From an uncultured archaeon (GTDB lineage: Archaea; Aenigmatarchaeota; Aenigmatarchaeia; GW2011-AR5), in contig CAYJVV010000001.1 in the NCBI GenBank assembly GCA_964373755.1, positions 1 through 26,729 of the forward strand: 26,729 nucleotides of DNA, written 5' to 3'. This document shows, piece after piece, positions 1 through 1,040 of this stretch. Made by a program: the position numbers and the translations under genes. How positions within the stretch are numbered: position 1 is the stretch's first letter; the number at the start of each line of letters is the position of its first letter. Below the pieces are notes generated by a model, which saw nothing but the letters and a program-made list of their open reading frames with translations, was not told where the DNA came from and searched no databases.

Positions 1-214
1 CTATCTCGCCGCTGCCAACAACCTTGCCTGGAACAACAACATTCTCGCCATAGTTTGCATGCCTTTCTATCTTTCCAACGTTAACAGCAGATTTACTTCT
101 TCTTGGCTTTTGAAGATGCTTTGCAACGACTAGATAAAACCTCTCTTTTTTCCTTTTCAGATCACGAATGAGTTTTTCTATATTCGGGTCTGTTGGTCCT
201 GTAGGATGCGGCAT
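1..214 (-). CDS. rpl18e: 50S ribosomal protein L18e (runs off the window edge; 3' part missing)
   Basis: Hand translation from ATG at 214: MPHPTGPTDPNIEKLIRDLKRKKERFYLVVAKHLQKPRRSKSAVNVGKIERHANYGENVVVPGKVVGSG. It has the eL18 motifs (PRR..VN..KI, VVVPGKV.GSG) and the usual position after rpoD-tRNA-Leu. Confidence 0.95.
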   Translation of the reverse strand, partial: MPHPTGPTDPNIEKLIRDLKRKKERFYLVVAKHLQKPRRSKSAVNVGKIERHANYGENVVVPGKVVGSGEI

Positions 215-261
215 AACAATCACTCCATTAATCAGAAACATTTAAGTGCCTTCGTTTTGAG

Positions 262-344
262 GGAGGTATTGGAACCTAAGGTTCTAATGCCGGGGAAGAG
301 ACGTTCTATCTGAATCTAGGAGGTATCGGAACCTAGGTTCTGAT
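262..344. repeat. Direct repeat pair GGAGGTATYGGAACCTA(A)GGTTCT at 262-285 and 319-341, each with a GAACC/GGTTC palindromic core
   Basis: One copy lies in the T-loop intron of tRNA-Leu and the other immediately 3' of the tRNA. They differ by 1 mismatch and 1 indel over 24 nt. Confidence 0.9.
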
Positions 345-383
345 TTTCGAACTCTTGAAGGCACTAAGCCACAGGATTTCTTA

Positions 384-416
384 AGAAGGAGAAAACCAAT
401 GGTTTTTCTCCCTTCT
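384..416. repeat. Palindromic element AGAAGGAGAAAACC-AAT-GGTTTTTCTCCCTTCT inside the anticodon-loop intron of tRNA-Leu
   Basis: Imperfect inverted repeat, nearly identical (1 indel, 1 mismatch) to the reverse complement of 14443-14474. Confidence 0.9.
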
Positions 417-578
417 AACCCTCATTCCTTTCAAGGGATTTTTTTCACTGTTGATTATCTCAACTCGAAACTTAAGTCACCTGCTTAAGTAAGGCCCGAT
501 TATTTCTTTCGCAATAACCGTCCTGCCCCTTTGGCCATTCCCTAGCTCTTTTGCTTAAACTTGTTTTTCGTAAGCACT

Positions 579-606
579 TTTTCCGCTAGTTTTCCGCTAG
601 CGCTTT
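579..606. repeat. Tandem 11-mer TTTTCCGCTAG x2 (579-589, 590-600) extending into TTTCCGCTAGCGCTTT, within the D-loop intron
   Basis: Read directly; 591-606 matches 12562-12577 at 15/16 positions. Confidence 0.85.
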
Positions 607-640
607 TTACGAAGCAAAAAGGGCTACTCGGGAACCCCGG

Positions 641-1040
641 CTCTACAATTAATCTTTGAGAAGAAGTAATTAAAACTATACATTAAGCATCAAGTACTTT
701 CTCGAACGCTAGAAAATTCTGTTCCATATGCTCTTTAAACTTAGAAGGAATATTTCTTCCAGTCAAATCTCTATCAAGTGTATCATGTACTATACGATTA
801 CTATACACAACGTGAACGCCATCATCTTCTCCTCTAACTTTCAGTCTATCTTGTGGAATTACAATATAAGACATGGTAGATTTTCCGCGGCATGTCCAGC
901 CTGCTAATGTGTACCAATCTCTATCAGGATCATATCGCACAACTCTCCTTGTGACTTCTCCCACAGAGTCCTGTTGCCTTATACGTACATCCATCCCGAT
1001 CTCCAACAAATCTACAGCCATATTCTCAGTCTCTACAATT
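641..1040. repeat. Exact 10-bp direct repeat CTCTACAATT (641-650 and 1031-1040) flanking an orphan ORF
   Basis: Read directly. One copy overlaps base 1 of tRNA-Leu and the other contains the rpoD stop codon. Confidence 0.85.
683..1021 (-). CDS. Hypothetical protein (orphan, 112 aa)
   Basis: Intact ORF co-oriented between rpoD and tRNA-Leu; no family recognised. Confidence 0.7.
   Translation of the reverse strand: MAVDLLEIGMDVRIRQQDSVGEVTRRVVRYDPDRDWYTLAGWTCRGKSTMSYIVIPQDRLKVRGEDDGVHVVYSNRIVHDTLDRDLTGRNIPSKFKEHMEQNFLAFEKVLDA

Follow-up and report, generated by a model that had tools for sequence, protein, structure and literature searches.

The two similar sequences located inside and immediately behind a tRNA-Leu(UAA) gene of an uncultured archaeon are both copies of the short form of a dispersed small hairpin repeat, and do not represent a private duplication of this locus. 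The repeat forms a family distributed widely over one archaeal order, and in the genome under study another of its short copies has entered cleanly the pre-existing intron of a tRNA-Arg gene. The tRNA-Leu locus shows no intron being created. We infer that the repeat has spread at the DNA level and that it does so without harm to its host. No general route for the origin of archaeal tRNA intron sequence emerged from a survey of Asgard archaea dated 2026 (bioRxiv 10.64898/2026.10.13.758758). The locus described here provides a dated, small-scale example, in which the position of the intron appears to be fixed while its filling would have been exchanged for a dispersed cassette that also lives outside tRNA genes.

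The window, i.e., the whole stretch of 26,729 nt that was analysed, is the entire contig C1 of an assembly of 98 contigs and 816 kb with 40% G+C, hereafter G000. It was compared with two relatives of the same genus, G001 and G002, whose flanks are 91-97% identical to each other, versus 73-83% between G000 and either of them. A consequence for annotation is that in G000, which is 91% complete, the standard model passes only 7 tRNAs above the Rfam threshold genome-wide, a paucity that fits the description of DPANN tRNA sets as hard to predict, the genes being disrupted (PMC5829648).

The tRNA-Leu(UAA) gene, whose neighbours are rpoD, an orphan ORF and rpl18e (the latter downstream on the minus strand), is called neither by ARAGORN nor by Rfam at the gathering threshold. 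Its exon blocks match orthologues that are uninterrupted or less interrupted, and the 5' strand of its acceptor, GCCGGGG (641-635), pairs with the 3' strand CCCCGGC (295-289). The T-arm is arranged in the order AAGAG-TTCGAA, 44 nt, T-CTCTT-CCCCGGC-A. In eight other genomes of the family, whose tRNA-Leu(TAA) orthologues have no interruption here, the exon TTCGAA (351-346) runs directly into the exon TCTCTTCCCCGGCA (301-288), and the flanks can be written as TTCGAA / TCTCTT or as TTCGAA / TCTCTTCCCC.GCA; positions 345-302 are thus a 44-nt intron that separates tRNA positions 59 and 60, with A288 as the discriminator. The features of the locus are as follows:

288 to 641, minus strand: tRNA-Leu(UAA) gene, 354 nt for about 84 nt of exon, heavily interrupted
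302 to 345, minus strand: T-loop intron of 44 nt between positions 59 and 60, from orthologue comparison
288 to 301, minus strand: 3' exon, comprising T-loop nucleotide 60, the 3' strands of the T-stem and acceptor, and discriminator A288
319 to 344, minus strand: intron copy of the short hairpin element, consensus type with a 2-nt loop, ATCAGAACC-TA-GGTTCCGATACCTCC
308 to 319, minus strand: CTAGATTCAGAT, 3' partner of the element's 5' arm in the minimum-free-energy fold
262 to 288, minus strand: trailer copy of the hairpin element, whose first base is the discriminator A288, ATTAGAACC-TTA-GGTTCCAATACCTCC
212 to 246, minus strand: TATA-like CTTAAATG (246-239), TTTCTGATTA box (238-229) and rpl18e ATG (214-212), from sequence reading

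The exon block at 288-301 is identical in G001 and G002 and near-identical in other genera, and the 59/60 site also holds an intron in G001, G002, G005 and G017. A relaxed bulge-helix-bulge can be drawn at this intron, with the T-stem AAGAG/CTCTT, a 3' bulge CGT and a 5' bulge AAA; its central helix, TTC(G)/(A)GAA, contains one G.A, as it does in G001 and G002, and the introns of G005 and G017 have a strict 4-bp central helix, TTCG/CGAA. In the minimum-free-energy fold, ATCAGAACCTAG pairs with CTAGATTCAGAT (10 of 12 pairs) to form an inner helix adjoining the splice bulges. An EndA domain is encoded in a 340-aa open frame of G000 contig C10, and the 59/60 intron is probably spliced by the endonuclease. 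Downstream of the gene, the block at 212-246 is conserved in G001 and G002 and, judged from its composition, may act as the rpl18e promoter. The TTCTGATTA box (window 229-238, minus strand) resembles the right arm of the element, the arm that in the long form adjoins start codons; in the three species of the genus it stands between the TATA-like box and the rpl18e start region, and it is also found directly 5' of a gene's ATG at G000 C67:237.

The match between intron and trailer had been noticed in a sequence-only reading, and it is real: a 17-mer search allowing up to 2 mismatches returned exactly 2 sites in the window versus 0.00 expected (100 shuffles), and a repeat search of the window gave the same pair with a spacing of 57 nt. 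As had been stated in that reading, the two copies differ by 2 substitutions and one extra loop base. It missed that both substitutions are the two sides of a single pair in a 9-bp stem (C-G to T-A), and are therefore compensatory. The intron copy is nearer to three other copies than to its neighbour in the trailer, being identical over 26 nt to the tRNA-Leu trailer copy of G002 and one loop base apart from both the tRNA-Arg intron copy and the copy in the RNase P RNA of G001 and G002. The trailer copy occupies the same place in G001 and G002, which were assembled independently.

The element has the layout ATCAGAACC-loop-GGTTCCGAT-ACCTCC, and its short form consists of a 9-bp stem, a 2-3-nt loop and the tail ACCTCC. 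A search for the arm GGAGGTATYG, proposed together with the original observation, found six sites in G000 and many in its relatives. Further G000 copies are located on contigs C51 (the tRNA-Arg intron), C84 (behind a conserved RNA-like region), C56 and C3, and contig C74 terminates within a copy. Across the 42 copies that were collected the arms hardly vary, double-sided changes are seen at two stem pairs, and a fixed stem position reads A.C on the strand with ACCTCC and G.U on its complement. Loop length varies from 2 to about 28 nt; a long form, with an AT-rich loop of 23-25 nt, is present in G000 on C56 and as two tandem copies on C3. Tandem or adjacent copies are also seen in G006, G022 and G002, and the copies lie in both orientations relative to transcription, in transcribed and untranscribed DNA alike.

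The distribution of the family was followed with several probes. The exact form GGTTCCGATACCTCC is present in six genera, and the 15-mer GGTTCCRATACCTCC (right arm plus tail, with R at one position and at most 1 mismatch) was found in 12 of 41 related genomes, versus 0-1 hits for the reversed control. A strict short-form pattern gave 13 sites in 7 of the 70 genomes of the order, and a covariance model built from 12 short copies recovered members in 13 of the 70, belonging to three families. It was also observed that GGTTCCGATACCTCC, i.e., the right arm and tail GGTTCCGAT-ACCTCC, resembles the 3' end of the 16S rRNA, GGTTGGATCACCTCC, at 10 of 15 positions (G000 C30:4206), a resemblance that takes in the anti-Shine-Dalgarno CCTCC.

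Regarding the means of spread, the flanks of the collected copies contain no target-site duplication, and some of them have a loose TTC 3-4 bases upstream. Mobilisation of the IS200/IS605 type was considered and discarded, as the Y1 transposases of G001 and G002 are flanked by unrelated hairpins; these IS200-type Y1 genes, with CCACCG...CGGTGG hairpins, are intact at three sites in G001 (L065-L067) and fragmentary at three contig ends of G002. Y1_Tnp genes were found neither in G000 nor in G006, a TnpB zinc-ribbon domain was found in none of five genomes, and no transposase or other spreading machinery could be linked to the hairpin repeat.

The clearest insertion is provided by the tRNA-Arg(TCG) gene. 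In G001 and G002 its canonical intron begins with ACCAAG directly after the 5' splice site, and in G000 the corresponding sequence reads AT, element, ACCAAAG, which amounts to 29 nt of element inserted immediately behind the 5' splice site. The intron is likewise present without the element in G022. The element-free introns of G001, G002 and G022 show that, in the lineage of G000, the short form was inserted into an intron that already existed. As an independent observation, the anticodon stem of this tRNA carries an extra 16-nt interruption (after TCTG) in G001 (L083) and G002 (L088) that G000 (L023) does not have, and its 3' anticodon-stem strand is GTCTATGG in G002 versus AACCAGA in G001, so that the G002 gene may be damaged or processed otherwise.

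At the tRNA-Leu locus, the trailer copies of G000 and G001 have in common an ATT/AAT stem pair and a TTA loop, both of them derived states, and by parsimony this variant was present in the ancestor of the genus. The G002 trailer contains a consensus copy together with 87 extra nt that include a second, partial copy. This 87-nt addition, absent from the 97%-identical G001, carries a 28-nt direct repeat, GTTCCGATACCTCCTATAGATATTGTAG, twice (L027, C5). The 59/60 intron of G001 and G002 is occupied by an unrelated two-hairpin filler (GCCCTTTCTT...AAGAAAGCGC...GCGGAAAGAAA), that of G005, a member of another genus, is filled similarly, and that of G017 is long and different, so that within the genus the hairpin is carried by this intron only in G000. 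G000 and its relatives are alike only in the first two intron bases and in the last TAGAA plus two, the positions from which the splice bulges and central helix are built.

Since the 59/60 intron exists with other filler in G001, G002, G005 and G017, it is most likely older than the hairpin copy. Most likely, a consensus-type copy, and not the trailer copy, took the place of its interior in the lineage leading to G000, and the intron and trailer copies would then most likely be two separate acquisitions. This outcome comes close to one of the alternatives offered by the sequence-only reading, namely that one element inserted twice within about 60 bp. The other, that the intron was copied from the 3' trailer, finds no support, the intron copy having the family consensus and none of the trailer's variant states, and the idea of a snapshot of intron birth is likewise unsupported, given the presence of the intron, with other filler, in the four other genomes. 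In the comparison with close relatives that had been suggested, both the trailer copy and the intron were present in both same-genus relatives. Several considerations temper this reconstruction. The rival filler of G001, G002 and G005 is itself a dispersed module, with further sites within RNase P RNA, after SRP RNA and in many other places, so that finding it in G005 is weak evidence of ancestry. The sequence of a copy is an imperfect clock, given that the G002 copy was overwritten quickly, and gene conversion among copies may take place and blur the choice of donor. Some small residual chance also attaches to an independent gain of the 59/60 intron at the same site.

Outside tRNA genes, one of the homes of the element is RNase P RNA, at the following loci:

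G000 C74:1-350 (L021): RNase P RNA
G001 L005:1450-1860: RNase P RNA
G002 L054: RNase P RNA
G006 L009: RNase P RNA

In G001, G002 and G006 this RNA contains the element as a 27-nt module that is reversed in orientation and immediately precedes the conserved GAGGAAGCTC (GAGGAAG) block, and contig C74 of G000 begins inside the RNase P RNA element. A first cmscan alignment had placed the element as P1 of the molecule. This assignment was rejected, the true P1 being GGTGACCTGTC, which lies about 60 nt upstream, pairs with the 3' sequence GGCAGGTCACC and sits behind a TATA-like CTTTATTAA box; with the true 5' end thus located, the element belongs to an expanded P3 region. In G005, G007 and G009 the element has partly decayed, and four other genera lack it. 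With 30-49 bits versus an Rfam threshold of 84, the RNase P RNA of this clade is a sub-threshold match, and it has two inserted hairpin modules, the element in P3 and a second one near the 3' end; in G006 the P3 insert opens with a second copy of the GAGGAAGCTC block. The second module (CCTTTTCTTT...AAAGAAAAGG, GGGAAAAGAAA) also fills T-loop introns, lies directly behind the SRP RNA genes of G001 (L119) and G002 (L120), and occurs at G000 C42:2011-2060 and many other sites in the family, the latter being matches to positions 324-375 of the RNase P query.

The element is also found directly after the discriminator of tRNA-Ser(GCT) in G031 and of tRNA-Ser(GGA) in G037, so that, counting tRNA-Leu, three different class II tRNAs have it flush behind the discriminator. 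In G031 and G037 the RNase P RNA has a plain P3 that lacks the element. In the GGAGGT orientation the long form lies directly against an ATG in 10-11 of 20 cases versus about 0.6 expected by chance, the latter being the analyst's estimate from the flanks of the collected copies. The genes concerned, with the long form 0-1 nt from the ATG, encode S3Ae, S10, L31e, likely L39e, aIF2-alpha, and ATP-synthase F and A. The following loci were considered:

L014:900-1517, L018, L019, L056, L058 and L062: long-form loci of G002, G022 and G006

In G006 the long form has a GC-rich loop and is organised in tandem arrays with a 55-nt period; otherwise its loop is TATA-like and located at the right distance for leaderless transcripts, and these sequence features make it resemble a portable promoter that would serve leaderless genes. 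A box C/D RNA or K-turn was also considered for it, and no C box was visible by eye. Taking introns, trailers and promoters together, the ATCAGAACC end lies 0-2 nt from a functional boundary.

Bacterial REP/BIME and MITE-like repeats are short imperfect palindromes, dispersed, clustered and variable between close relatives. By description, the present element is like them in being an imperfect palindrome with an asymmetric conserved tail, dispersed, and extragenic or located in dispensable RNA. Unlike them, it is archaeal, no RAYT-like transposase and no target duplication were found for it, some of its copies lie inside stable-RNA genes, and it has a promoter-like long form at start codons. 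A repeat at the 3' end of a tRNA gene also recalls the partial tRNA-gene duplications (att sites) that integrative elements leave there (context in PMC3293823). An integrase att duplication was nevertheless discarded, as the repeat comprises intron and trailer, not exon, with 14 nt of exon between the copies; at the locus, no integrase ORF or foreign DNA was found between or beside them.

A closer parallel comes from the transposed tRNA introns of Thermoproteales, where whole introns are shared between tRNA genes (Fujishima et al. 2010, summarised in PMC4090602), a sharing that is read there as a sign of intron movement at the DNA level. As in the cases summarised there, near-identical sequence occurs here in different tRNAs and at different positions of one genome (Leu 59/60 and Arg 37/38). 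Unlike them, as far as the summary describes them, only an interior cassette of 26-29 nt is shared, without the ends that carry the splice motif; the cassette is also present in trailers, RNase P RNA, promoters and intergenic DNA; and both cases that can be polarised are entries into existing introns, not intron gains.

The explanation that we favour, and consider probable while well short of certain, is that a REP/MITE-like repeat spreads at the DNA level as a harmless passenger, and that a consensus copy of it replaced the interior of a pre-existing intron. The repeat would spread and be renewed at the DNA level within this archaeal lineage, and would persist where it does no harm, i.e., between genes, in introns and 3' trailers that are removed, and in RNase P RNA at a loop that tolerates it. 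The ancestor of the genus already possessed the trailer copy, and most likely also the 59/60 intron, filled differently. A copy of the consensus type would then have entered this intron in the lineage of G000 and replaced its interior, the splicing-motif bases at both intron ends being kept and the stretch complementary to the element's 5' arm supplying the inner helix. It is proposed that neither copy reaches the mature tRNA, because the endonuclease would excise the one and 3'-end processing would remove the other, and that the 57-nt spacing arises because copies tend to settle beside existing ones. Against the passenger character of the repeat stand its near-invariant arms across genera, the two compensatory changes and the flush placement after three class II tRNAs, all of which resemble the marks of a selected function more closely than those of selfish DNA.

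These same properties are the basis of the strongest alternative, in which the element is a selected binding site or processing signal, acting at the 3' ends of stable RNAs, as an operator or as a promoter. We regard it as unlikely, and it is compatible with mobility. To the invariance and compensation it can add that copies stand directly after the discriminator of tRNA-Leu in three species, after the two tRNA-Ser genes and after a conserved RNA gene, that the usual T-run after tRNA-Leu is missing in the genus, and that the long form with its TATA-like loop abuts the ATG of S3Ae, S10, L31e, aIF2-alpha and ATP-synthase F/A. Such a signal fits less well with copies in both orientations, in transcribed and untranscribed DNA and with loops of 2 to about 28 nt, with a presence that varies between 97%-identical genomes, with the lack of the element in most orthologous tRNA-Leu genes, and with the much weaker folding of the pre-tRNA strand, which carries the A.C mismatches (-8.9 versus -22.2 kcal/mol for the G.U strand). 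A further alternative, in which pre-tRNA copies, antisense to the P3 module, pair with RNase P RNA and recruit the enzyme, was suggested by the module of opposite orientation inside the RNase P RNA of G001, G002 and G006, and by the start of C74 within that of G000. It appears highly improbable, since the tRNA-Ser trailer copies of G031 and G037 do not co-occur with an element in RNase P RNA, the module is paired internally within this RNA, and it is decaying in G005, G007 and G009.

Under local duplication, one of the two copies, in the intron or in the trailer, would have served as template for the other, and the copies would later have drifted or been converted towards the consensus. This would account for two copies that lie only 57 nt from each other and point the same way, when the genome as a whole has about eight. 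Local copying does happen in this family, as adjacent and tandem copies are common, and the G002 trailer, having turned consensus within a 97%-identical pair, makes copy sequence a poor clock. Yet the ATT/AAT and TTA variant spans the deepest split of the genus (G000, G001) and hence predates the G000-specific intron copy, none of its derived states appears in that intron copy, and the latter has closer kin elsewhere than next door, so that we hold a local origin to be improbable, somewhat more so than a selected signal. Mis-assembly of the duplicated sequence might be suspected in a 98-contig draft with a contig, C74, that terminates inside a copy, but it is hardly credible: a compensatory pair and an indel distinguish the two copies, the intervening exon is whole and is required, and two further assemblies bear out the trailer copy. 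A leader-trailer helix at the tRNA-Leu gene was also looked for, and none was seen.

One further reading may be mentioned. It is possible, though we hold it only tentatively and rather doubt it, that the element is an active, polar mobile cassette of 27-55 nt in DPANN archaea, whose ATCAGAACC end lands flush on functional boundaries. If so, a single family would provide introns with their filling, RNase P RNA with expansion segments, and leaderless, highly expressed genes with ready promoters, and archaeal tRNA intron sequence would have a traceable donor. The occurrence of the same cassette in RNase P RNA and at start codons suggests that tiny genomes reuse a few hairpin modules widely.

The RNA-like region in front of the C84 copy deserves separate mention. 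It is a conserved non-coding region of about 200 nt, located at about positions 95-290 (plus strand) of G000 C84 (L022) and at about 233530-233730 of G002 C4 (L070). It has no Rfam match, and an identification as SRP RNA was dismissed, the SRP RNA being located elsewhere in G001 and G002. The region lies behind a TATA-like CTCTTTATAG and is directly followed by the hairpin element. It is about 95% identical between G000 and G002, versus about 77% for the flanking genes, and its closing helix displays a compensatory change, GGCGGATG/CATCCGCC versus GGCGGACG/CGTCCGCC.
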